This document shows positions 23,427 to 34,301 of a stretch of DNA of 34,868 nucleotides, piece after piece (positions within the stretch are counted from its first letter, which is position 1; each line of letters opens with the position of its first letter). The position numbers and the translations under genes were made by a program. This DNA comes from Candidatus Nanohalarchaeota archaeon QJJ-5 (GTDB lineage Archaea > Nanohalarchaeota > Nanosalinia > Nanosalinales > Nanoanaerosalinaceae), in contig JALIDO010000003.1 in NCBI GenBank assembly GCA_022865265.1, positions 1 to 34,868 on the forward strand, in the 5' to 3' direction. The notes beneath the pieces were generated by a model. That model was given only the letters and a program-made list of their open reading frames with translations. It was not told the DNA's origin and made no database searches.

Positions 23427-24353
23427 TCAATCTGCCGTATTGACCAGCTGTTGTTGTTCAAGCATTACTATCGGAAGGTATCGGAGAAAGACCTTGACTG
23501 GAAGCTGGACGAACAACAGAAAGCTCATAATAAGGCCAACAATCGTGCCGGTGAATGTGGTAAGCTGTGCGATAATCGTTGACAGTGTTCCGCCTGTGCT
23601 TGGTGCAGAAAGCACTGATCCGATGATATCGAACACCGGTATGCCGGTGATGATCGCGATCATGCTGCCGATAAAGAGTGTGCCAATACTGATCACAGTA
23701 TTCAGTGTTACACGAATACTGGTGTAGGAGAGATAGGCTTTAGGATGGTCGCGAACATCAGTTATCAGTGTCCTGGCCGCAGTCTGGTAGTCCGCATGGA
23801 TGAGTCGAAGTGGTACGAGGAAATCGGTCATGAATCCATTGGTCACCGTGTATCCGATGACTGCGATGGTATTGATAAAAACGAGTCCGTATTCGATCAT
23901 CGGGTCTCCCTGTCTGAGATTGAAGATGAGATACTGGATGGCAAAGACGGCGGTGAATCCGATCAACAATGCGATTCTGATACCGAACAAACGTATACCG
24001 GCGGGGGTCCATATTTTCAGACTGTCATTAGCTGGTTGTTTGTCCTCCAGTAGCCATTTGGTAAAGATGAAATCCAGGATGCTCCCGATCAGATAGTAGA
24101 TAAAGATAATGGTTCCGATGATGCTACTGATTCCTAGGATGGTATCGAGGCTGTATGAAAGATGTGCTGAAAGAGTACCCAATCCCTCAGTGGATAATGG
24201 AAGGTAACTCGAGATGATAGTGTAATTGAACCGTGCACCGGCACTGATGAAGGTAGCAAGAGACACCAGAGCAAGCCAGGATCGGGGTGTCAGTGTGAAC
24301 ACGAGGTGATAGGTTCGTCGAAGACTTTCACCGATCAATCGGCCTACACGCAT
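23427..24353 (-). CDS. multi-pass membrane protein of unknown function
   Basis: About 6 TM helices; visibly more AT-rich than flanks. Confidence 0.78.
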   Translation of the reverse strand: MRVGRLIGESLRRTYHLVFTLTPRSWLALVSLATFISAGARFNYTIISSYLPLSTEGLGTLSAHLSYSLDTILGISSIIGTIIFIYYLIGSILDFIFTKWLLEDKQPANDSLKIWTPAGIRLFGIRIALLIGFTAVFAIQYLIFNLRQGDPMIEYGLVFINTIAVIGYTVTNGFMTDFLVPLRLIHADYQTAARTLITDVRDHPKAYLSYTSIRVTLNTVISIGTLFIGSMIAIITGIPVFDIIGSVLSAPSTGGTLSTIIAQLTTFTGTIVGLIMSFLLFVQLPVKVFLRYLPIVMLEQQQLVNTAD

Positions 24354-24405
24354 ACCATCAGGATGCGGCCGGAACTATTTCAAGGACAGGATGTGTATCT
24401 TCAGT

Positions 24406-24597
24406 ATGGTCTATTCTGATCAAGACGATATCGTTTTTGGTGGGATCATCGTTCTGTGTCTGGTTGTGATCGTGGGCTTTATCGCGAACCAGATGGGGAT
24501 GCCGGCCCATGCCTTTTTCGGACCACCGGGGCTTGTCCTTGTACTTTATTCAGGTCTTGTGTATGTTATCGGGGTCTATATCGGGAAACGGGCTTAA
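24406..24597 (+). CDS. small 2-TM membrane protein
   Basis: MVYSDQDD then two hydrophobic helices; TATTTCAAG upstream. Confidence 0.6.
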   Translation: MVYSDQDDIVFGGIIVLCLVVIVGFIANQMGMPAHAFFGPPGLVLVLYSGLVYVIGVYIGKRA

Positions 24598-25139
24598 AGT
24601 TGGTCTAGTGCCTGTTGTGCTAACCTCTGACACTTCTCAGGTCCATACGGGTCATCGAGAAATGTTCTGAGATCGGACCTGAGATCTGTAAGATGATCTG
24701 TCCCGCGTGGTTTGTTTGCCTGGAGTTTCTGTCCGCCTTCACGCCATCCTTCTGCAATGTACCAGTCTTTGAACCAGGTGAATCCATTGATGAACAGAAG
24801 ATGGCCGATCGGTGTTGCGGGTGGCGGGATATCGATATTAAGTGCTTCTGCCGTCAGGCTATCGGTATACTGTATCATGATATGGCTGCCTGGCACGAGT
24901 TGGTCGGCACAACAGGTGATGAGGTCTATATCATCGTCATTGTCTGGTGACAGTGTTTGATCGGGCACAAGTTCAATCCATGGTTCGATGTACCTGGTTT
25001 GCTCACGAAACGTTACCCGATATGTGCTATCGTTCCGTGCTATGGTCATGACTGTCGTTTTTCGCTTGCGTTCGGTGATCGTTGTCTCGTACCCCAGGTC
25101 TTTCAGTCGATCAACAAGTGGATCCATCGTTCTGACCAT
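24594..25139 (-). CDS. DUF1122 family protein
   Basis: PPPATPIG..LF..GFTWFKDWYIAEGWREGGQKLQANKP. Confidence 0.85.
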   Translation of the reverse strand: MVRTMDPLVDRLKDLGYETTITERKRKTTVMTIARNDSTYRVTFREQTRYIEPWIELVPDQTLSPDNDDDIDLITCCADQLVPGSHIMIQYTDSLTAEALNIDIPPPATPIGHLLFINGFTWFKDWYIAEGWREGGQKLQANKPRGTDHLTDLRSDLRTFLDDPYGPEKCQRLAQQALDQL

Positions 25140-25177: not shown

Positions 25178-25405
25178 GTGATCGGGCAGTTAGTCAGGGT
25201 GCCTTTCTGTGAACATATGTACTTCATCAAGAACCCTGTCTGGTCTGATCACTATCGCTCGGCTGTCAGAACTTTTATATATCGTTCATGAGAAATTGAG
25301 GTCTGCCTTCTGTGGGGGGAAGGTTCGAAAGGGTTGTGCGAGAGGGAGGTTTTTGACGCACCTCATCTATTGTCCCTCTTGCCGTTTCCTACCCTTTCTC
25401 TTTTT
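25178..25405 (+). ncRNA. candidate structured non-coding RNA(s): two long hairpins
   Basis: Stems at 25178-25252 and 25327-25398 with G.U pairs on the + strand, TTTTATATAT at 25273-25282 and a T-tract ending at 25405. Confidence 0.4.
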
Positions 25406-26520
25406 CAACATTCTTCGATGATCGTTCTGATATGATCGAGTGGCGCATTTGTTCTGATACCAGTATCTTCGAAATGAGAACGGACTGCATTGTATCCTCG
25501 TTCTTCAAAGGCCCTGAGAAGGTCTTCGATAGCAGGTGCAGGTACATTGTAGGTGGCTGCAAGGTCATGAGTGTCATAGTACGGTGTTGATATCGGTATT
25601 TCGGTGATGAGCCTATCCAAAAGAGCTGTAGCATCATCGAACCCGCGTTCGGTGCAGTTGTCTCGTGTCTGTTCGATGAACTCTGTTCGTCCGAGATGAC
25701 CGATCCAGGTCGGCCCGATTCTGTTCAGGTCCGTCTCGCAGTAAGGACATGTTGTTTCTTCTACGTTTGGTTCCATGGTCCGATAACAGCAATCAGGGCA
25801 GGCCAGGATATAGCCGATCTTGTCCAGTGACCGGTTAACCCCTTTCTTCGATTCACGGACAGTCCCATTGAGACGATAGTAGTGTTTCTGTGCAAAACTG
25901 AGCTGGGGTCTGAATACCATGTCTCGTCTCGCAAATGCTTCAAAGACCGCCTTGATCAATGTCCGGATCCCGACCTCGTGCTGGAAGCTTGTCTTGTGCA
26001 TCCATGTTCCGTACCGGCGTCGACAGGTCTTCGTATAGCTGCCACAGAGGGTGGCAAGGTCTGTCGCTGTGATACCGAGAAAGGCTTCATGATTGGCTCC
26101 TCGAGCCGCTGCATCAAGGAACGGGACTGGTGATCCGAAGGGATCGATATCGATGATATCGTATTGCCCGGCTTCGGTGGTCATATGGATAACCGCATCA
26201 GTGTGTTCGATATCGATATCCATGCCCGCATTGAGTTCATTGTTCTGTTCCATGTTCTCGATCGCATTTGGATTGGTGTCTGTGGCCTTGATAGATTGTA
26301 GACCAGTGGTCTCGTTCGCATACCGGAATGCACGGACACCAGATGCGGCCAGAGCATCGATCAGAGAAAGTTCTCGCTCCTGTCCATCGATGTATGATTG
26401 GACCGCTGCGACGGAGATATCTCTGTTCAGGATCATATCTGTATTGTAGAAGACCTCATCATCCGCTGTTGGTTCTTCTGCCGGATCGAGGTCGAGGCTG
26501 ACCGAGCGTTCGTCTATCAT
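25405..26520 (-). CDS. trm1: tRNA (guanine-26-N2)-dimethyltransferase
   Basis: VFYN..M..NRDIS, DALAASGVRAFRY, DIIDIDPFGSP, ITATD, HEVGIR, CPDC/CPYC, GPTW and RSHF..TGIRTNAP. Confidence 0.95.
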   Translation of the reverse strand: MIDERSVSLDLDPAEEPTADDEVFYNTDMILNRDISVAAVQSYIDGQERELSLIDALAASGVRAFRYANETTGLQSIKATDTNPNAIENMEQNNELNAGMDIDIEHTDAVIHMTTEAGQYDIIDIDPFGSPVPFLDAAARGANHEAFLGITATDLATLCGSYTKTCRRRYGTWMHKTSFQHEVGIRTLIKAVFEAFARRDMVFRPQLSFAQKHYYRLNGTVRESKKGVNRSLDKIGYILACPDCCYRTMEPNVEETTCPYCETDLNRIGPTWIGHLGRTEFIEQTRDNCTERGFDDATALLDRLITEIPISTPYYDTHDLAATYNVPAPAIEDLLRAFEERGYNAVRSHFEDTGIRTNAPLDHIRTIIEEC

Positions 26521-26527
26521 CGGCTAC

Positions 26528-27766
26528 CTACTCATCATCAGTCTCGAGTTCCTGATCCCGGACGGTCGGCCGAGTGCCTTTTGCTTCTTTCTTTGCGGAT
26601 TCGGCGATCTGGTCCGTATTCAATGATGGCGTCATGTCCTGTGCCTCTTGTTCGGCATCCTGTTTCTCTTTGATATCTTCACCGACCTTCGATGCGAACT
26701 CTTTGGTTTCTTCTTTGAGTTCCATGAGTTCAGTATCGTCCAGCTCATCGAGTTTCTTGTCTTTGACCATGCTGATGACGTCATCCCAGCGGTCGAACAG
26801 TTCGCGGTGGTCTTCACCGAAATCGAGTTCTTCATCGACCACATCCGGCAGATCTTCTTTGTCTTCCGGTGGTTCGATGCCTTCTGATTTGAGAGCGGCT
26901 ACATTAGCCTTCAGGAACGTCTTGTAGTCATCGACGACATCTTTGACTTTTCGCTGTGAACCAAGTTCGCTGACTAGCTTGTGCATCCGTCGGATGAAAT
27001 CATCGGTCATCTCGAGATGTTCTTCAACTTCTTCGGCTGTGACCTCATCAGGGTGTTTCTCGCCCTTGTTGCCGAATTCATGGATCTGTTCAGCCATGTC
27101 TGCATATTTCTCCTCGAGCAGATCTTTTTCGACGAATAGTTCACGCAGTGCCTTGGCTACATCTTCCTTGTTCGGTGGTGTCTTGCCGATATACATGATC
27201 GGGGCTTGGCCAGCGTTCGCGATCGCCTGTTCCAGATTATGTGGGATACTCTGTCGCATCTTCTTGTCGCTTTTCTTGTAGCCAGCTGCCGCCATCTTGA
27301 GTCGTTTCTTGACGGCTTCTTCTGATGATGAGATCTTCCCACGTTCGAGCATCCGTTTCGCAGGCATGAATACGCCAACGTCATAGACCGGTTCTCCTTT
27401 CCGGAGCACACCGATGATCAACGGCTCGCCCTTTCTGATCGAATCCCAGAAGTCTGTCAGGAAGGAGAAATACTGGATGGTGATACGATCATCGGTCTCT
27501 TTCGCGAGCTTGGTGACCTTTTTCCTGATCTTGTCTTTGGCTTCGTCTGGAACATCTTTATCGAGCTTTGTATCATCCAGGACAACGAATGTATCGATAT
27601 CTGACTCATGTGTATGGCGTCCATCGGGCACAGATCCATAGACGGCGACACACATGACCTTGTCGCCGAGTTTTTCTTTCAACAGATCAGCGAATTCTTC
27701 GACTTTTTCGAATCGGCGTTCCTGTGATTTCTGACGGGCTTCCTGGAGCTTGTCTTTTGAACTCAT
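26528..27766 (-). CDS. minimal nucleotidyltransferase (Pol-beta superfamily) fused to HEPN-like helical domain(s)
   Basis: YGS-x10-DIDTFVVLDD motif; C-terminal helical regions with PPNKED and PPEDKED. Confidence 0.82.
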   Translation of the reverse strand: MSSKDKLQEARQKSQERRFEKVEEFADLLKEKLGDKVMCVAVYGSVPDGRHTHESDIDTFVVLDDTKLDKDVPDEAKDKIRKKVTKLAKETDDRITIQYFSFLTDFWDSIRKGEPLIIGVLRKGEPVYDVGVFMPAKRMLERGKISSSEEAVKKRLKMAAAGYKKSDKKMRQSIPHNLEQAIANAGQAPIMYIGKTPPNKEDVAKALRELFVEKDLLEEKYADMAEQIHEFGNKGEKHPDEVTAEEVEEHLEMTDDFIRRMHKLVSELGSQRKVKDVVDDYKTFLKANVAALKSEGIEPPEDKEDLPDVVDEELDFGEDHRELFDRWDDVISMVKDKKLDELDDTELMELKEETKEFASKVGEDIKEKQDAEQEAQDMTPSLNTDQIAESAKKEAKGTRPTVRDQELETDDE

Positions 27767-27830
27767 GAATAAATCACAGATACCTTTGCCATTGCAATCT
27801 TTTTATGCCTTAGAGAACAGGGAGAACGGT

Positions 27831-30425
27831 TCAACGGTATTTTTCTTGTTCCCATTGTTCCGGCTGATTGTCCTGTTTCAGGGCAGCACGGCCGGTCCAT
27901 GTGTGATCTGGATTTTCCATGTACAGTAAGCCTTCAAGCGGGGCGAATGCGTTTTCAAAGATGGTCTCCCACTCATGATGCCATTCTTCATCGGTCAGTC
28001 CGAAGAACTTGAGGACGAGATAGTCTTTCAGGGTGAGGTCTTCGTTGCCTTTCTCATCGTATCGGTTCCAGGCCTCATCCACGTATTCGGTGGTCAGATC
28101 CTCAGGTGTGACGCCATGTTCGATCATATGCATCATCAGGCGCAGCATATAGGTGGACTCGGCTTTCTCTTCTCCGATCTCATACATCACGATGCTCGGT
28201 CGGTCATCGCGTTCACAGAAGCCACGTTCCACGAGAGAATACAGGTGTTCGAACACGATAGTGTCGCCACGTCTGATCGGCTGGTGATGGTGGCCGGTTT
28301 CGGAAAGTGCAGGATGCGTAACGTGTTGTTTTGTGATATAACGTCCATCACCATCTTCTAAACCTTCGAAATTATGTTCTTCATTGCCCTGGATTGTCCA
28401 GAGTGGATCAACGCCGTTCATGGCGAGATGTTCCATATCGATAGTACAGAACATGACATCATAGGTCTCACCGTTGATCTCGGTATTGTTGACCTCACGA
28501 CATACCTTGATGATGTCGCGTGGTTTCCAGAGTTTGCTCCGTCCTTCGCTCCCGACATTGTGCGATTCCCAGTCGAGTGTTAGTCCATGTTCATTCAGCA
28601 ACTCTACCAATGTCTTGTCTTGCCCGCGGCCGATGACCTGGGTGAACTGGCCCCACACATATGCAGCTGCACCGGCCGCATGGATCTTATCGTAGTCTTC
28701 TGAGTCTGCTAACTCGGCCAACCGTTCTTCGAAGGCATCCAGGTTATTCATACTGTATTCATCAGGATCGATGCCTGTGATCGCGTGCCATAACCGTTCG
28801 AGGTGCTCGTTGTCCGAAAACGGCATCCAGCGTGGCATGATCTCCCAGAAGATGTTCGATTCACGATTCATTTCATCCTGGAAGGCACCGCCACGGAAAT
28901 TGATGATATCACGGAACGCGACTTCGCCCTCGCTCATAGGATCATCATCTTTCATGAAGTAATCGCGGTTACCATCATACACTTCGGTCTCTTTCAGCCG
29001 TTCCTGTATCTCATCTTTCAGATCTTGCTTCAGTTTCTCATATACTGTATCCATTTCTTCATTGAGCCGTGCTTGGTCGCGTAGTGTATCGTCTCGGTCT
29101 TTCTCCCAGAATAGCTTCGGAATCATATGGATCCAGCGTGAGTTCGTATGCAGTTCTGGATCGAACCGAACCAGGGCCTGTGCGATGTTGGATCCTTCAC
29201 GATGCTTTTTCAGATCATCGAGACTCTCCGGGACATCCGATCTGACACCGGCCATCGTCTGGATAGCTGAGGTCCGGAGTTGATCATTCGTATTCTGAAA
29301 TCGCTGATTGTTCACATAGTGTTCCAAAAGGGATTCTTTATCTGGATACGCCTCATAGATGTCCTCACTATCGACAGCTGCCAGTGCACTTTGAAAGTCT
29401 TCCATGAGCTGGTTCAATTGATTCTGTAATAATTGTCTCTCCTGTGGGTCTGCTTCTGCAATCTGTTCCCGAAGATCATCCATCCTCGATTGGATGTCTT
29501 GGAGTTGTTCTTGGTGCTCGCCAGGTACGTTATTCACGAGGGCATCGATATCCATATCGTCTTGGTTACGGATGACTACTCTGCCAAGAGGAACGTCGAA
29601 TTCGACGATATCAGGGCGTTCATCTAATAGATATTTGAGATTTTCTACCATGTTTTCAGTTTCATCCAGATTGCTAACTGCTTCTAACATATCCTCTGTC
29701 AGATAACCGTCATCGCTCATGTGGTCGACGATGATCTTCCTTTGAAGGATGTTGAAGTCCGTATATCCTTCGATATCGTTTGCTATGCCCTGTAGTGTCT
29801 GGAAGTTATCTTTCAGTTCGCTTTCCCACAGATATTCCCGGAAGAAACTGACACGGAATTCTGGGCACTTGAAGATCCGTGACTCCATCATTTCGGTACC
29901 AAATGGATCGACTGACACTGATCCCGCCATGCGTTCTTCTCTTGCAGGGATTTCTGATTTCACGAGATGGGTATTGATACCATACACTGATTGCTGGTTC
30001 CCATTGACATCGGGTTCGCTTTCGATGGCGTCTTTGAAATCGCCCCAGGCATCGATGAAGTCATACATGAACTCATGACTGTAGTAAAAGCCCATCTGTT
30101 CGCGCTGTTCATAGTACGGGTTCGCATAATCGAACGGTATCTTGACCGGGAAATGGGCATCGAAGCTGAGTCCAAGCTGGCGTGACATCTGGATGAGCTG
30201 GTCCCATTCATTGTAGATCTGATTTGGGCCACCGAGATACATCTCGATGAAGCTCGCTCCCTGGTTCGAGGCCCAAGCGGCTCGTTTGTACAGTTCATCG
30301 GGAATGTCCGGGACGACATTCATGCCTGAAGAGACGGCAACGATATAGTTGAGATCCAGTGTCTTGTGCTGGTCCTGATTGATGAGTTGTCGGTACTGTT
30401 GTTTGACTTCTTGTTTTGTTGGCAT
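27831..30425 (-). CDS. large xylose-isomerase/AP-endonuclease-2-like TIM-barrel protein with helical insertion
   Basis: FIEM, FDAHFP, INTH; then LDWESH, CTIDMEH, KQHVTH, HHHQPI and MYEIG after a long helical/coiled-coil segment. Confidence 0.68.
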   Translation of the reverse strand: MPTKQEVKQQYRQLINQDQHKTLDLNYIVAVSSGMNVVPDIPDELYKRAAWASNQGASFIEMYLGGPNQIYNEWDQLIQMSRQLGLSFDAHFPVKIPFDYANPYYEQREQMGFYYSHEFMYDFIDAWGDFKDAIESEPDVNGNQQSVYGINTHLVKSEIPAREERMAGSVSVDPFGTEMMESRIFKCPEFRVSFFREYLWESELKDNFQTLQGIANDIEGYTDFNILQRKIIVDHMSDDGYLTEDMLEAVSNLDETENMVENLKYLLDERPDIVEFDVPLGRVVIRNQDDMDIDALVNNVPGEHQEQLQDIQSRMDDLREQIAEADPQERQLLQNQLNQLMEDFQSALAAVDSEDIYEAYPDKESLLEHYVNNQRFQNTNDQLRTSAIQTMAGVRSDVPESLDDLKKHREGSNIAQALVRFDPELHTNSRWIHMIPKLFWEKDRDDTLRDQARLNEEMDTVYEKLKQDLKDEIQERLKETEVYDGNRDYFMKDDDPMSEGEVAFRDIINFRGGAFQDEMNRESNIFWEIMPRWMPFSDNEHLERLWHAITGIDPDEYSMNNLDAFEERLAELADSEDYDKIHAAGAAAYVWGQFTQVIGRGQDKTLVELLNEHGLTLDWESHNVGSEGRSKLWKPRDIIKVCREVNNTEINGETYDVMFCTIDMEHLAMNGVDPLWTIQGNEEHNFEGLEDGDGRYITKQHVTHPALSETGHHHQPIRRGDTIVFEHLYSLVERGFCERDDRPSIVMYEIGEEKAESTYMLRLMMHMIEHGVTPEDLTTEYVDEAWNRYDEKGNEDLTLKDYLVLKFFGLTDEEWHHEWETIFENAFAPLEGLLYMENPDHTWTGRAALKQDNQPEQWEQEKYR

Positions 30426-30435
30426 CTGGTGTCAC

Positions 30436-31827
30436 CTACTTCATCACGTACAGTCCGACATCGTATTTCAGCGAGATGTAGAGGGCTGCTGATCCACCGA
30501 ATTTCGGCCCGAGAAGGCCTTCACGGAGATCGGATGGGTCAACATGATAGTACGCATCACCTTTGCCTGCCCAGAACAGGAGCCGTCGCTGGAGTTCATC
30601 GAGGAATGACGGATCATAGGGGGTATATTCCTTATCAGTATGTTTCTGGATATCTGGTGCAATATCGTCTCCCACATACTCGGTGATATATCGTTTGACC
30701 TCGTTCTTTCGTTCATCGATCTGTGGCTGGAAGACCTCCTGGAAGACATGTTCACAGACCACATACTCTTTGAAATTGATCTTCATGACCTCACCCCCCT
30801 GGCCCGGGGACTGTGGCTGTTCAGAGCCTCCGAGGGAAATGTGGGTCGCATCAAGGATAACGACGTCTCGGTGCGTGACGACATCTTCGCCTTCATCATT
30901 TTCTGCTTCCCGGACAGGTTTATGGCAGATGACTTTGATGCCCCGGACAGACGAGGAATATCCTTCCATCATGTACGGATCGGACATCTCTGAGACTTTC
31001 GCTTCGGGGTCGCCTTCCATCTGCTGGATGGTCTGTACATACGGTTTGATCCAGTTCTCGGTCTGTTCGATCGATGTTTCGACCGATTTCAACCGGCGTT
31101 TGACTTCCCGGACCTTATCCTCGATCGCATCGGCATACCGATCTTTCCATTGTTCATAGAGCTTCCACTTCTTCCTGAGGATTGCTTTTTCCTGTTCGGG
31201 AAGATCACTCAGGTGTCCATCGCCTTTGAGATCATCGAGTGATTCCATGCTGTAGAAATCAGCCGTGATCGATGGGAAAATATCATTAGCAGTCATCTGG
31301 AGGATGCTGGCACGACCGGTATGTTGGTCGACCTCATCGACGAAATCGCCTTTGAGTGCTTCTTCTTTCCGATCTTCGAAGTGTTCGAGTTTCTCCTCGA
31401 GCATCCGTTCATCGTGTTCCAGCAGTTCCTTTTTCTCATAGAGTTCCTCGAGGTTCGCCAATGTCCTGCCGATCTGTTGTTCGGCCTGCTGGCGGCGTTG
31501 CTCCATCTCATGGTGGAGCTGAGACCCGGGGTTCGCATGAAGCCATTCACCAACTTTGCTGACCTCATATCCGAATTGGGTATCGAGGAGATCGACAGTC
31601 GCAAGATATGTGTCCACAGGAAGCCCCTGTGTCGCATCTGAAACCTTGATAAGCCTATTATGTGGTTCATCATGTGTTGCCCCTACATATGGTTCGCCGC
31701 TCGGCTGATTTTCATCGATCCATTCTTGTGCGGCTCCTGGTCCTTCTGTCCGGGCGATTTCACGAATTTTATCGATATTTGCCGGGTAACATCCATGCAT
31801 ACATCGATCCTCGGCTCCTTTTGTCAT
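30436..31827 (-). CDS. coiled-coil-rich protein of unknown function
   Basis: Heptad-like segments EMEQRRQQAEQQIGRTLANLEEL.. and VREVKRRLKSVETSIEQTENWIKPY; GGTGAG upstream; 10-nt gap to next gene. Confidence 0.85.
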   Translation of the reverse strand: MTKGAEDRCMHGCYPANIDKIREIARTEGPGAAQEWIDENQPSGEPYVGATHDEPHNRLIKVSDATQGLPVDTYLATVDLLDTQFGYEVSKVGEWLHANPGSQLHHEMEQRRQQAEQQIGRTLANLEELYEKKELLEHDERMLEEKLEHFEDRKEEALKGDFVDEVDQHTGRASILQMTANDIFPSITADFYSMESLDDLKGDGHLSDLPEQEKAILRKKWKLYEQWKDRYADAIEDKVREVKRRLKSVETSIEQTENWIKPYVQTIQQMEGDPEAKVSEMSDPYMMEGYSSSVRGIKVICHKPVREAENDEGEDVVTHRDVVILDATHISLGGSEQPQSPGQGGEVMKINFKEYVVCEHVFQEVFQPQIDERKNEVKRYITEYVGDDIAPDIQKHTDKEYTPYDPSFLDELQRRLLFWAGKGDAYYHVDPSDLREGLLGPKFGGSAALYISLKYDVGLYVMK

Positions 31828-32044
31828 CTTCTCACCAGTATATCCCGTTATTTAGGTGCGGCCTCATAAGAATGTATCGCTCACAGTTGATTGTTCTAGA
31901 CAGTTCGACAGGTGTATCCTACAAGGACATTCAGGTCTAGGATATACCTAAGGTGTCATCGTTACGCTTGATGATACTGAACTGATGATTGTACTGGATG
32001 ATTTGGCCAAAATTTAATATTCAGGTAGCTGAAAGAGATATACC

Positions 32045-32743
32045 ATGGGACTCGTGGACGATATCAAGGATAAAGTCGGAGATGAGAATACTGGGTCAGA
32101 CTCACAGGTTCGACGCCCACCAAAGAAACCTGGACAGGATAACAACACTAACAGAACCAGACAACAGGGATCACAGCAGTCACAGACTGGTCAGCGTCGC
32201 GGATCAAACCAGCGACAGGGCCAGAGCCGCGGGCAACAACAGAATCAGCGCGGTGGTTCCCAGCATCAAGGACGATCTGGTGGGCAGAATCAACGCCAAC
32301 AGTCCTCCCACCAATCACAGCAATCATCTCAGCCACGTCGTGGGCCTGGCGCAGAACAGGGGCCGCCTGACAGCCAGGGGCCGGACAGTCTCTCAGCACC
32401 AGGTCCGGCAGAGAATTCATCGGGCTCAGGCCGCGGTTCAGCAAATCCAGGTCCGACGGCGAACACATCACGTGGGCCGGAAGGTGGTCTCGATGATCTC
32501 GATGATCTTGGGTCCGCAGATGATCTTGGACAGAGTGAATCACCACCGGGTAATAGTCGGAGCCCTGAGGCATCTCTCAGAGATGATCCTGGTCCGGGTA
32601 ATGATATCACGCCGCCAGGGATGGATACCGATCGTGGATCATCAAGCGGCGAGCCGGACATGAGTCAGTTACAACAGCAGAATCAACAGATCATAAACCT
32701 TCTTGAAGATATTCGTGATGCACTGGAGCGACAACCGCGATGA
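32045..32743 (+). CDS. low-complexity (Q/G/S/P/D-rich) disordered protein, paralog 1
   Basis: MGLVDDIKDKV start; C-terminal QNQQIINLLEDIRDALE; TTTAATA at about 32013. Confidence 0.8.
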   Translation: MGLVDDIKDKVGDENTGSDSQVRRPPKKPGQDNNTNRTRQQGSQQSQTGQRRGSNQRQGQSRGQQQNQRGGSQHQGRSGGQNQRQQSSHQSQQSSQPRRGPGAEQGPPDSQGPDSLSAPGPAENSSGSGRGSANPGPTANTSRGPEGGLDDLDDLGSADDLGQSESPPGNSRSPEASLRDDPGPGNDITPPGMDTDRGSSSGEPDMSQLQQQNQQIINLLEDIRDALERQPR

Positions 32744-33090
32744 AGATCTTTGATAAACTCAATGACGACAATGAGGATGAAGAAGTAGAGCTCAAGCCAG
32801 ATACGCGGTTGAAAGATGAGGTGGCAGCCCGCACACAGGATCGGGGATCATCATCGACTTCGACAGATGATGAAAGCGAGTCCCTTCTACCTGGTGCTGT
32901 TGGTGGTAGCGATACTACATCGGATCGTGGACGTGTATCCTCATCCACAAAGACGGATGGTGATCTCGAGGAACAGATCAAGACCGTGATCGAGCAGAAT
33001 GAACGTATAATCGAACTGCTCGAGACCATCTCATCCGTGTCCTCGGGATCGACGAATCGTTCTAGTGATGGCAAGGACGAATTATGGTGA
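32740..33090 (+). CDS. acidic disordered protein, paralog 2
   Basis: MKIFDKLND start; QNERIIELLETI; ATGA overlap with the previous gene. Confidence 0.8.
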   Translation: MKIFDKLNDDNEDEEVELKPDTRLKDEVAARTQDRGSSSTSTDDESESLLPGAVGGSDTTSDRGRVSSSTKTDGDLEEQIKTVIEQNERIIELLETISSVSSGSTNRSSDGKDELW

Positions 33091-33102
33091 CGGCTGATAG
33101 TC

Positions 33103-33576
33103 ATGTCGTTTTATGATAGTGTCAAAGATCGTGTGCGTGATGATGAGACAGATGAAGACGATGATACGGAATCAAGTGGTGGTACAATGGCATTCGATGA
33201 ACTAGTGAAGAAAGCAGAACAACAAGACGATGATGAGGAAGAACAACAAGATGATACAGAGATCGAGGACTTTTCCGGTGGTGGCAGTGGTGGATCAAAG
33301 GATTATGGAGATCCATCGAGCATCGAGCTGAATGAAGAGACAGAACCACAGGCGGGAGATGGGTCGAGTGAGCCCTCATCGTCTGAGGACAAGGACGATG
33401 ATGAGGTCGAAATCCATAGTGATGGTTCTGTTACACCCCCCGGAGAGCAAGAACAGCATGAGCAAGAGCAGAAACCTGTTGATGGAGATGGTGATGTCAT
33501 CGCACTGCTCCAGGAAATCCGTAATCAGAACGACCAGATTATCAGTGTACTTCGCGATATCCGCGAACGCATGTAA
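33103..33576 (+). CDS. acidic disordered protein, paralog 3
   Basis: MSFYDSVKDRV start; LLQEIRNQNDQIISVLRDIRERM. Confidence 0.8.
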   Translation: MSFYDSVKDRVRDDETDEDDDTESSGGTMAFDELVKKAEQQDDDEEEQQDDTEIEDFSGGGSGGSKDYGDPSSIELNEETEPQAGDGSSEPSSSEDKDDDEVEIHSDGSVTPPGEQEQHEQEQKPVDGDGDVIALLQEIRNQNDQIISVLRDIRERM

Positions 33577-33587
33577 GGGTGTTTTTA

Positions 33588-34301
33588 GTGACAGAACGGA
33601 TCTATATGGAAGATTGCTATGCTGAGACGGTCTCGACACAGGTCGAAGCTATAAGGGCTGGTGGTATTGTCCTCAGTGAGACTGTTTTTTACCCAGAGGG
33701 CGGTGGTCAGCCTGCAGATCAGGGCGTGATCAACGTCGGTGGGACGTCCATCCAGGTTACAGACGTTTCCGTCGATCACGGGGAAATTCTCCATCATGTC
33801 GAATCGACAGATCCAATCACGGAGGGGGATGATGTGGATGCGAGGATCGACTGGGAGCGTCGTCATATGTTGATGCGTATGCATACAGCCCAGCATCTTC
33901 TCAGTGCTGTTGTTCTGGATATGTTTGATGCAAAAACTGTCGGTAATCAGATCCATCCGTCATATTCCCGTATTGATTTCGAGCCGGTAAATTTCAGTCA
34001 AAAGGATCTCGATCGGATCGAACGTCGTTGTAATGCCTTGATTGAAGAAGAACGGTCTGTATCGATCTATGAAGAAGACCGGGAAACTGTTGTTGAGAAA
34101 CTGCCAGTAGGACGATCGAACCTCGACCTCATACCAGATCATATCGATCCGTTGCGGGTTGTCGAGATTGAAGGTCTCGATATCTGTCCCTGTGGTGGGA
34201 CACATGTGAGCAATCTCGATGAGATTGGTCGATTCATCATCGAAGACAGGAAAAGCAAAGGCGAGGACATCGATCGTATCGAGTTCAGTCTCGATGCATG
34301 A
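33588..34301 (+). CDS. alaX: free-standing alanyl-tRNA editing protein (AlaX-M type)
   Basis: TVFYPEGGGQPAD, MRMHTAQH (HxxxH) and CPCGGTH (CxxxH); GTG start at 33588 gives MTERIY. Confidence 0.93.
   Translation: MTERIYMEDCYAETVSTQVEAIRAGGIVLSETVFYPEGGGQPADQGVINVGGTSIQVTDVSVDHGEILHHVESTDPITEGDDVDARIDWERRHMLMRMHTAQHLLSAVVLDMFDAKTVGNQIHPSYSRIDFEPVNFSQKDLDRIERRCNALIEEERSVSIYEEDRETVVEKLPVGRSNLDLIPDHIDPLRVVEIEGLDICPCGGTHVSNLDEIGRFIIEDRKSKGEDIDRIEFSLDA

Follow-up and report, generated by a model that had tools for sequence, protein, structure and literature searches.

A family of proteins specific to DPANN archaea, described as a minimal nucleotidyltransferase (MNT) fused to a HEPN domain (cluster cls.004259, NEQ050), has been reported from 36 of 67 genomes in a housekeeping context and ranked as a top-priority unknown (Makarova, Wolf and Koonin 2019, PMC6393860). 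In those parts of the HEPN survey that deal with domains fused behind nucleotidyltransferases, the RNase residues are described as lost and a role in substrate binding is given (Anantharaman et al. 2013, PMC3710099). Here, we describe a locus in which a protein of this kind is encoded together with two further conserved proteins. It is located on contig JALIDO010000003.1 (C33 in our numbering) of Candidatus Nanohalarchaeota archaeon QJJ-5 (GCA_022865265.1), whose assembly comprises 701 kb in 48 contigs and is 80% complete; the stretch of 34,868 nucleotides analysed is referred to below as the window. The genes, all on the minus strand, were designated A (30436..31827, 463 amino acids), B (27831..30425, 864 amino acids) and C (26528..27766, 412 amino acids). 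All three are real genes, with full-length homologues of each numbering from dozens to hundreds. Together, they constitute a vertically inherited, single-copy, cytoplasmic housekeeping module of Nanohaloarchaeota and Aenigmatarchaeota.

The distribution of the module was profiled across 70 genomes of the Nanohaloarchaeal class, 28 of them of high quality. A was detected in 68 genomes (28/28 of high quality), B in 64 (27/28) and C, at a threshold of E <= 1e-40, in 65 (28/28), always at the same locus. By hand counts from three gene tables, A and B are both present in 63 genomes, and in 59 of these A immediately precedes B without a change of strand. The exceptions were G025, with a 47-amino-acid fragment of A abutting B at an apparent contig break, and G006, G007 and G062, which carry A and B on different contigs. 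The same counts gave 63 genomes with both B and C; in 60 of them C follows the 3' end of B, contig and strand being unchanged, with a gap below 250 nt in 29 of these 60 and of 0.5-3.7 kb in the other 31. Neighbourhood profiling had been named beforehand as a test of the module, and the homologues indeed co-occur, in the same order, in nearly all class genomes. Being single-copy and syntenic in nearly all 70, they bear out the initial annotation in its view of a lineage-wide housekeeping system and not of mobile defence. It should be added that in one genus (G009, L071 3838-5766 (-); G008, G010 and G011 by coordinates) a 642-amino-acid gene, named glycosidase-like by eye, is inserted between B and C and widens the gap to 2.1 kb, with order and orientation unchanged. 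The possibility that genes intervening between B and C in Nanohaloarchaea are C-like paralogues was rejected for six loci examined.

Outside the class, the presence of similar proteins in other DPANN lineages had been anticipated, and this held for one further phylum, Aenigmatarchaeota, where B was found in 77 of 81 evenly sampled genomes (E <= 1e-40) and a pattern scan built on 10 closer sequences yielded 43 loci. An A homologue (E 1e-23 to 1e-38) is positioned directly upstream of B in 32 of these loci; among the 11 loci with no A match, five have B at no more than 1.6 kb from the locus start and six had room for the gene. A homologue of C occurs downstream of B in 25 of the 43. Furthermore, 14 loci contain a shorter C-like protein (C') between B and C, still PF01909-positive, which gives the order A-B-(C')-C; twelve of these proteins are complete, with about 280-300 amino acids, and two are cut by the locus end. 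The comparison of distances drew on 31 loci with a complete set of A, B and C. Between A and B, pairwise distances correlated at r = 0.94 in Nanohaloarchaea (45 pairs) and 0.83 in Aenigmatarchaeota (210 pairs). Since kin share their history, these values point to co-inheritance and not necessarily to co-evolution. All three proteins are acidic and devoid of any hydrophobic segment (maximal Kyte-Doolittle 19-residue mean < 1.0), and are therefore considered to be soluble cytoplasmic proteins of a halophile. PADLOC returned no system-level match for the module.

B is a divergent member of the xylose-isomerase-like/AP-endonuclease-2 superfamily that appears to keep an endonuclease-IV-type multinuclear metal site. 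Its AlphaFold model (predicted local distance difference test, pLDDT, 83.3; predicted template-modelling score, pTM, 0.73) has four beta strands before residue 155, helices only between residues ~180 and ~600 and four further strands after residue 615. The protein is thus modelled as a xylose-isomerase-like (beta/alpha)8 barrel, split by a helical insert of ~400 residues between strands 4 and 5, and the split TIM barrel with AP-endonuclease-2/xylose-isomerase-type motifs proposed in the initial annotation is recognisable in the model. The N-terminal barrel half (residues 1-220; 29766..30425 (-)) comprises modelled strands 27-32, 59-63, 87-92 and 147-154 and contains the invariant H91 and H153. 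According to the alignment and the model, residues 221-575 (28701..29765 (-)) form the all-helical insert, the middle of which varies in length and sequence among lineages. Its barrel-proximal part is conserved (R511, S523, P531, W533, M534 and W546), and the insert can be aligned to Aenigmatarchaeotal orthologues only from about residue 524 onward (hhalign E 2.5e-38). The C-terminal half (residues 576-864; 27831..28700 (-)), delimited from the model and the structure search, has strands 616-621, 658-663, 697-701 and 744-749, carries E620, D663, E665, H666, H701, H712, H714 and E749, and ends in a conserved, poorly modelled tail with a W..E.Y motif.

A Foldseek search with the model gave weak E-values (0.05-0.3) and, for the same families, probabilities of 0.96-0.99. 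On the strength of the model the fold is settled and the subfamily is not, since the top rows of the structure search tie. No solved structure was found for B by sequence, with either single sequences or profiles. A word-indexed search identified 23 homologues, of which the organism-named ones were all from Nanohaloarchaea, and a profile built from these 23 retrieved 145 proteins at E <= 0.001 from 1.84 billion representative proteins. When 29 weaker matches (500-860 amino acids) were compared with Pfam, PF01261 (AP_endonuc_2) was matched by 13 at E <= 0.01 and by five over the cut-off, and the matches were split in two pieces, at profile positions ~7-92 and ~100-249. Twenty remote clusters were looked up; five of them were organism-named and all five belonged to Aenigmatarchaeota. 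It should also be added that in the genome G061 the C-terminal barrel half of B occurs once more, as a partial copy (G061:C1:132787-133806; a 407-amino-acid open reading frame (ORF), E 4.7e-50), 30 kb from the full module, in an assembly with 7% contamination.

Conservation in B was counted on 44 merged sequences, 23 Nanohaloarchaeal and 21 Aenigmatarchaeotal. H91, H153, E620, D663, E665, H701, H714 and E749 are identical in 44/44, and H666 is kept in 43/44. The trinuclear site of endonuclease IV we take to consist, in E. coli numbering, of H69, H109, E145, D179, H182, H216, D229, H231 and E261. The two proteins were compared by hhalign of B against an alignment of 31 Nfo proteins, 30 from class loci and the genome's own. 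In the N-terminal half of B, H91 and H153 pair with the two N-terminal His ligands of Nfo (E 1.6e-4, probability 50%). In the C-terminal half, TID663MEH666 corresponds to CIDTCH, H701 to the His of HLND and H712/H714 to the D-x-H motif. E620 and E749, placed by strand position only, are at the ends of strands 5 and 8, like the Glu ligands of Nfo. Altogether, with pairings at E 1.6e-4 in the N-terminal and 0.06 in the C-terminal half, eight of the nine endonuclease-IV ligand positions are invariant or nearly so in B across two phyla (43-44 of 44), and therefore a multinuclear metal phosphoesterase is favoured over a single-metal epimerase, short of proof.

B differs from endonuclease IV itself (Nfo/Apn1; E. 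coli 1QTW, T. maritima 2X7W) in several respects: it does not match the models TIGR00587 and PF01261, contains the ~400-residue helical insert between strands 4 and 5 and has His or Pro at the D229 position, and its family possesses an additional invariant E665, a His at position 593 and a constant partner, A. The genome of the window encodes elsewhere a canonical nfo product of 288 amino acids (249 bits) and a small CbiR-like barrel. Because a normal nfo is present elsewhere in the genome, B is not the ordinary endonuclease IV of the cell. Comparison by hhalign of B profiles with the genome's own Nfo and CbiR-like protein as single sequences produced only short, low-probability motif matches. 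Across the class, nfo is present in 64 of 70 genomes, in 62 over the family cut-off, and a Rad50-like ORF in 54 of 70; the genome of the window has both, and A-B as a replacement for Rad50-Mre11 or Nfo was consequently rejected. MJ1311 (PDB 3WQO) and the D-tagatose/D-psicose 3-epimerase group of the superfamily show 13-15% sequence identity with B. The 3-epimerases have a single-metal E-D-H-E site; B differs from them in four additional invariant His residues, in its large insert and in having a partner protein.

Gene A (30436..31827 (-)), immediately upstream of B, encodes an orphan protein with a hairpin. In its model (pLDDT 78.5), two long antiparallel helices (residues 103-151 and 211-271) form a hairpin, spanning residues ~103-271, on an alpha/beta domain, so that the earlier label of a coiled-coil protein describes the helices and omits the second domain. 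No fold match was found for A, its alpha/beta domain not having been searched on its own, and no solved structure was recovered by sequence using single sequences or profiles. In a merged alignment of 66 sequences (34 Nanohaloarchaeal and 32 Aenigmatarchaeotal), H138, D139, R141, F162, D167, P185, F191, K220 and W227 are identical in 66/66, and D164, D190 and Y224 are near-invariant. What the two phyla have in common is the segment of the hairpin (profile positions ~78-330). A Cys/His cluster (C9, H11, C13, C358 and H360) is restricted to Nanohaloarchaea. Since the residues conserved across both phyla make up a polar cluster on the hairpin (H138, D139, R141, D164, D167, D190, K220 and W227), A is considered to be more than a plain scaffold. 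An SMC/Rad50-type coiled-coil ATPase was rejected as an identity for A (Rad50 16.2 bits against a cut-off of 1087; JetC E 0.001, at the level of coiled coils), and the model contains no P-loop domain and no ABC ATPase heads flanking the coiled coil.

C begins with a basic N-terminal tail followed by a minimal nucleotidyltransferase core of the Pol-beta superfamily (residues 1-135; 27362..27766 (-)) with G44-S45 and D56-x-D58, and continues with a helical HEPN/KNTase_C-like region and an acidic tail (residues 136-412; 26528..27361 (-)). It matches PF01909 (E 2.3e-7, 31.5 bits over a cut-off of 21), and its best solved relative in a profile search is the kanamycin nucleotidyltransferase (KNTase) 6p01 (E 3e-5, residues 14-64). 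The intact GS..DxD site read in the initial annotation stands, G44, S45, D56 and D58 being identical in 17/17 aligned homologues. Identity of C across the class amounts to 60-92% (264 matches; mean column identity 70%). The name HEPN-like has weak support, from DUF4145 (E 0.01), from the Joint Genome Institute name 'UPF0332' on homologues and from one Atlas structure cluster matching C, 81% of whose members carry PF05168. Besides DUF4145, no Pfam HEPN family matched at E <= 0.1. The canonical Rx4-6H RNase motif of HEPN proteins was not found at its usual place; the only R-x4-H in C (R171..H176) is located between the first two helices, with R in 10 and K in 7 of the 17 homologues and H176 invariant. 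Two helical repeats (~140-268 and ~268-385) are possible by self-comparison (E 0.002, probability 14%). Structural look-alikes of C in the Atlas are DPANN nucleotidyltransferases from Aenigmatarchaeota, Nanobdellota and Woesearchaeota (Atlas model pTM 0.45).

Judged by its sequence, C appears to be an active-looking minimal nucleotidyltransferase fused to putatively non-catalytic, substrate-binding HEPN-like domains; the lack of the RNase motif agrees with what the HEPN survey says of domains fused to nucleotidyltransferases (PMC3710099). C shares with ANT(4') and HepT/MntA, including the fused FhepTA, an N-terminal GS…DxD nucleotidyltransferase core followed by a helical KNTase_C/HEPN-clan domain. 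It differs from them in scoring 28.7 bits against the ANT(4')-I model (cut-off 350) and 17.2 bits against that of MntA (cut-off 60), in the missing RNase motif, in some 150 additional residues with the possible second helical repeat, and in being chromosomal, universal and syntenic, where those systems are patchy and mobile. The likeness to type VII toxin-antitoxin pairs of the MNT-HEPN kind, put forward in the initial annotation, fails on the RNase motif and on this distribution. Two specific identities were rejected: the ANT(4') kanamycin nucleotidyltransferase, to which the similarity extends only over residues 12-75, and the CCA-adding enzyme, a genuine cca being present on contig C47 (386 bits against the TIGR03671 cut-off of 281.3) and C having no match to TIGR03671. 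C also fits the description of cls.004259: like that cluster, it joins an MNT to a HEPN-like region, is specific to DPANN, stands in a housekeeping context and shows a conservation that is uncommon for proteins resembling toxin-antitoxin components. Compared by published description, C and cls.004259/NEQ050 are likely the same family; the passages that treat the cluster name no link to a TIM-barrel gene or an A-like gene, and C has both (PMC6393860). Elsewhere in the genome (L003 709-2610 (-), contig C6 of G000) there is a C paralogue of 633 amino acids with two nucleotidyltransferase-plus-helical units in one ORF, the first having an intact GS…DIDIL core and the second, degenerate, neither GS nor DxD; it adjoins a PIN/ATPase-like gene and an HtpX-like protease.

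We rank first, with a probability of about 35%, the reading that the module may cleave or clean a phosphoester at a nucleic-acid end (DNA, tRNA or other RNA) and then add nucleotides. B would be a metal-dependent hydrolase acting on a phosphodiester or phosphomonoester at the end, or at a lesion, of a nucleic acid, and C would then add one or more nucleotides at the end processed by B. A would be an obligate partner of B, which binds the substrate or regulates access to it via the conserved polar surface of the hairpin. The ranking rests on a combination that is met repeatedly in nucleic-acid end repair: in PolX-PHP, LigD and the class II CCA-adding enzyme with its HD domain, a Pol-beta-type nucleotidyltransferase is joined to a metal phosphoesterase by which 3' ends are cleaned. 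By analogy, the module would make the same pairing, with the differences that its folds and domain sets are others, that the two activities would be on separate proteins and that a third, orphan protein is added. A broader proposal, which we put forward only tentatively, is that A-B-C might be an undescribed, probably essential DPANN-specific machine, in which A would bring a new ligand-binding or catalytic site (H138-D139-x-R141, D164, D167, D190, K220 and W227) to an EndoIV-like metallo-phosphodiesterase. With the nucleotidyltransferase, the cycle would be a complete one, either cleave-and-add or nucleotidylate-and-remove, and its nucleic-acid or protein substrate would be one that other archaea leave alone or treat in another way.

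A number of observations weigh against the end-repair reading. The best structural matches of B are epimerases; B itself has no PF01261 or NCBIfam match at E <= 0.1 in Pfam and NCBIfam scans, and hhalign pairs its C-terminal half with Nfo at weak statistics (E 0.06, probability 0.9%). The D229-equivalent position in B is His in 23/23 Nanohaloarchaea, and among the 21 Aenigmatarchaeota Pro in 11 and His in 7. Position 593 (window 28647-28649; motif YVWGHFTQ) is His in 43 of 44 sequences, and the sole exception is the window's own B, with Gln. C resembles nucleotidyltransferases acting on small molecules or proteins (KNTase) and is devoid of polymerase-type DNA/RNA-binding domains. Another gene is located between B and C in 31 of 60 genomes, so that C is linked to B and not always in the same operon; in one of them (G039) the gap holds an unrelated ORF of 244 amino acids on the opposite strand. 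Finally, with a canonical nfo, a Rad50-like gene and a CCA-adding enzyme encoded in the same genome, there is no obvious repair gap to fill.

An alternative, which goes back to the writer, eraser and scaffold of the initial annotation, is a cycle of protein modification by transfer of nucleoside monophosphates (NMPylation), in which C would AMPylate or NMPylate a protein (A, B or a third one) via its HEPN-like domain, B would remove the nucleotide as a phosphodiesterase and A would be target or adaptor. Where a nucleotidyltransferase is fused to a HEPN domain without the RNase motif, the HEPN survey presents it as a domesticated enzyme that modifies proteins or small molecules (PMC3710099), and oligoAMPylation of Tyr of the MntA type is established (PMC13000451). 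The invariant Tyr/Lys/Asp surface residues of A and the continued linkage of all three genes would fit such a cycle, against which stands the low score of C with the MntA model (17.2 bits, cut-off 60). Moreover, we know of no EndoIV-fold de-AMPylase, none having been searched for, and altogether we regard this explanation as unlikely, albeit the most serious of the rivals. The next in rank, likewise improbable, is small-molecule or sugar chemistry, with B as a sugar (phosphate) isomerase, epimerase or dehydratase or a CbiR-like phosphodiesterase and C as a KNTase-like enzyme on a small molecule, for example in a pathway that salvages or remodels a metabolite, cofactor or glycan precursor taken from the host. 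The structural matches of B to epimerases and the KNTase-like core of C are set here against four extra invariant His residues (H91, H153, H666 and H714), which fit an EndoIV-type multinuclear site and not the E-D-H-E site of epimerases, and against a 400-residue helical insert and a hairpin partner, both unusual for a metabolic enzyme.

We attach little probability to a housekeeping nucleotide-signal system, in which C would make a linear or cyclic oligonucleotide, B degrade it and A sense it. The pairing of a synthase with a phosphodiesterase would suit the usual logic of signalling, and C matches the PADLOC model for an oligonucleotide cyclase weakly (E 3.3e-5) and HalB faintly (E 0.067), but these matches cover the generic nucleotidyltransferase core only, C does not have the CD-NTase architecture and no effector domain was seen. 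Slightly lower still we place B as a multinuclear non-haem iron oxidase of the MbnB/TglH kind that modifies a peptide or protein, with A as a partner like MbnC or TglI. Multinuclear iron oxidases have a ligand set similar to that of endonuclease IV; the MbnB/TglH-like candidates rank, however, below EndoIV and epimerases, and remote B homologues match PF01261, with DUF692, the family of MbnB, not among their listed matches. Many Aenigmatarchaeota come from anoxic habitats, which makes a universal O2-dependent enzyme unlikely. That the MNT-HEPN fusion forms the core of a type VII toxin-antitoxin system, or of some other mobile defence island, is scarcely credible. C has the MNT core and the HEPN-like region, as well as weak matches to PADLOC candidate nucleotidyltransferases (PDC-S09, E 1.8e-8), and fused MNT-HEPN toxin-antitoxin modules are on record (PMC13000451). 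On the other hand, the module is single-copy, with the same order in nearly all 70 class genomes and in a second phylum, the sequence identity of C across the class is 60-92%, the module is flanked by housekeeping genes and the guanine-plus-cytosine (GC) content is unremarkable. Furthermore, C has no Rx4-6H at the canonical place, with R171 replaced by Lys in 7 of 17, and stays far below the MntA cut-off (17.2 against 60 bits). A near-universal and vertically inherited module therefore excludes a toxin-antitoxin or defence island. The probability left over by all these readings is reserved for explanations outside the list.

Within the window, the module is read in one direction, followed by trm1 (25405..26520; PF02005 E 2.9e-93; TIGR00308 295 bits against a cut-off of 280.65). 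The spacers measure 10 nt (A-B), 64 nt (B-C) and 7 nt (C-trm1), and both the co-orientation of the three genes and these distances, as given in the initial annotation, match the ORF listing. The A-B spacer (30426..30435 (-)) contains a Shine-Dalgarno-like GGTGA immediately 5' of the B ATG, as read from the sequence, and so suggests co-transcription and coupled translation of A and B. An A/T-rich, TATA-like ATAAAAA at 27800-27806, 34-40 nt before the C start in the B-C spacer (27767..27830 (-)), may be an internal promoter for C. Upstream of A, in the divergent intergenic region, a TATA-like TAAATAA (31848..31854 (-), 21-27 nt from the ATG) is likely the putative promoter of the A-B(-C) transcript. 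These signals would be consistent with one A-B transcript, and perhaps an additional promoter of its own for C. The GC content at the locus is unremarkable, and the housekeeping neighbours are trm1 and an AlaX-like gene.

Further genes were noted around the module. The neighbours at 23427-25139 (-) and 33579-34301 (+) of the window encode a DUF7544 membrane protein, a DUF1122 protein and an AlaX-like tRNA-editing protein (tRNA_SAD), and a TFB gene is found near the module in 15 Aenigmatarchaeotal loci and in G009; these proximities may be a remnant of old synteny. Divergently from gene A, at 32045-33576 (+), there are three consecutive small acidic low-complexity ORFs (232, 116 and 157 amino acids), which end in a similar amphipathic motif (…Q.II.LLEDIR…, …IIELLETI… and …IISVLRDIRERM, respectively); the 232- and 157-amino-acid ORFs were scanned against Pfam and gave no match. 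In Aenigmatarchaeota, a divergent tandem pair of a Pfam-negative family of ~160-185 amino acids is positioned directly upstream of A in 30 of the 43 loci (for example L064 4071-5094 (-) and L046 4105-5113 (-)). On contig C1 of the window's genome (L106 1444-3039 (+), G000) there are three tandem ORFs of similar size with shared motifs, the first of which matched this family by search (E 2.2e-10) and the other two by eye. The family may belong to the module as an additional, more loosely attached component.

The genomes of DPANN archaea are among the smallest known from cells. That two small-genome DPANN phyla keep a module of ~5 kb in nearly every genome searched argues for an important function. 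A full-text literature search returned no account of the three genes as a module; the search did not extend to the supplementary tables of PMC8204110 ('module 39', widespread DPANN families), which may list these families. What is apparently the MNT-HEPN top-priority unknown (Makarova, Wolf and Koonin 2019, PMC6393860) is now tied to two further conserved genes, and concrete residues are supplied for testing the activities of the module. The module might reveal a new use of the endonuclease-IV fold, and knowledge of what it does would close a gap in our picture of the core biology of archaea that live as obligate symbionts.

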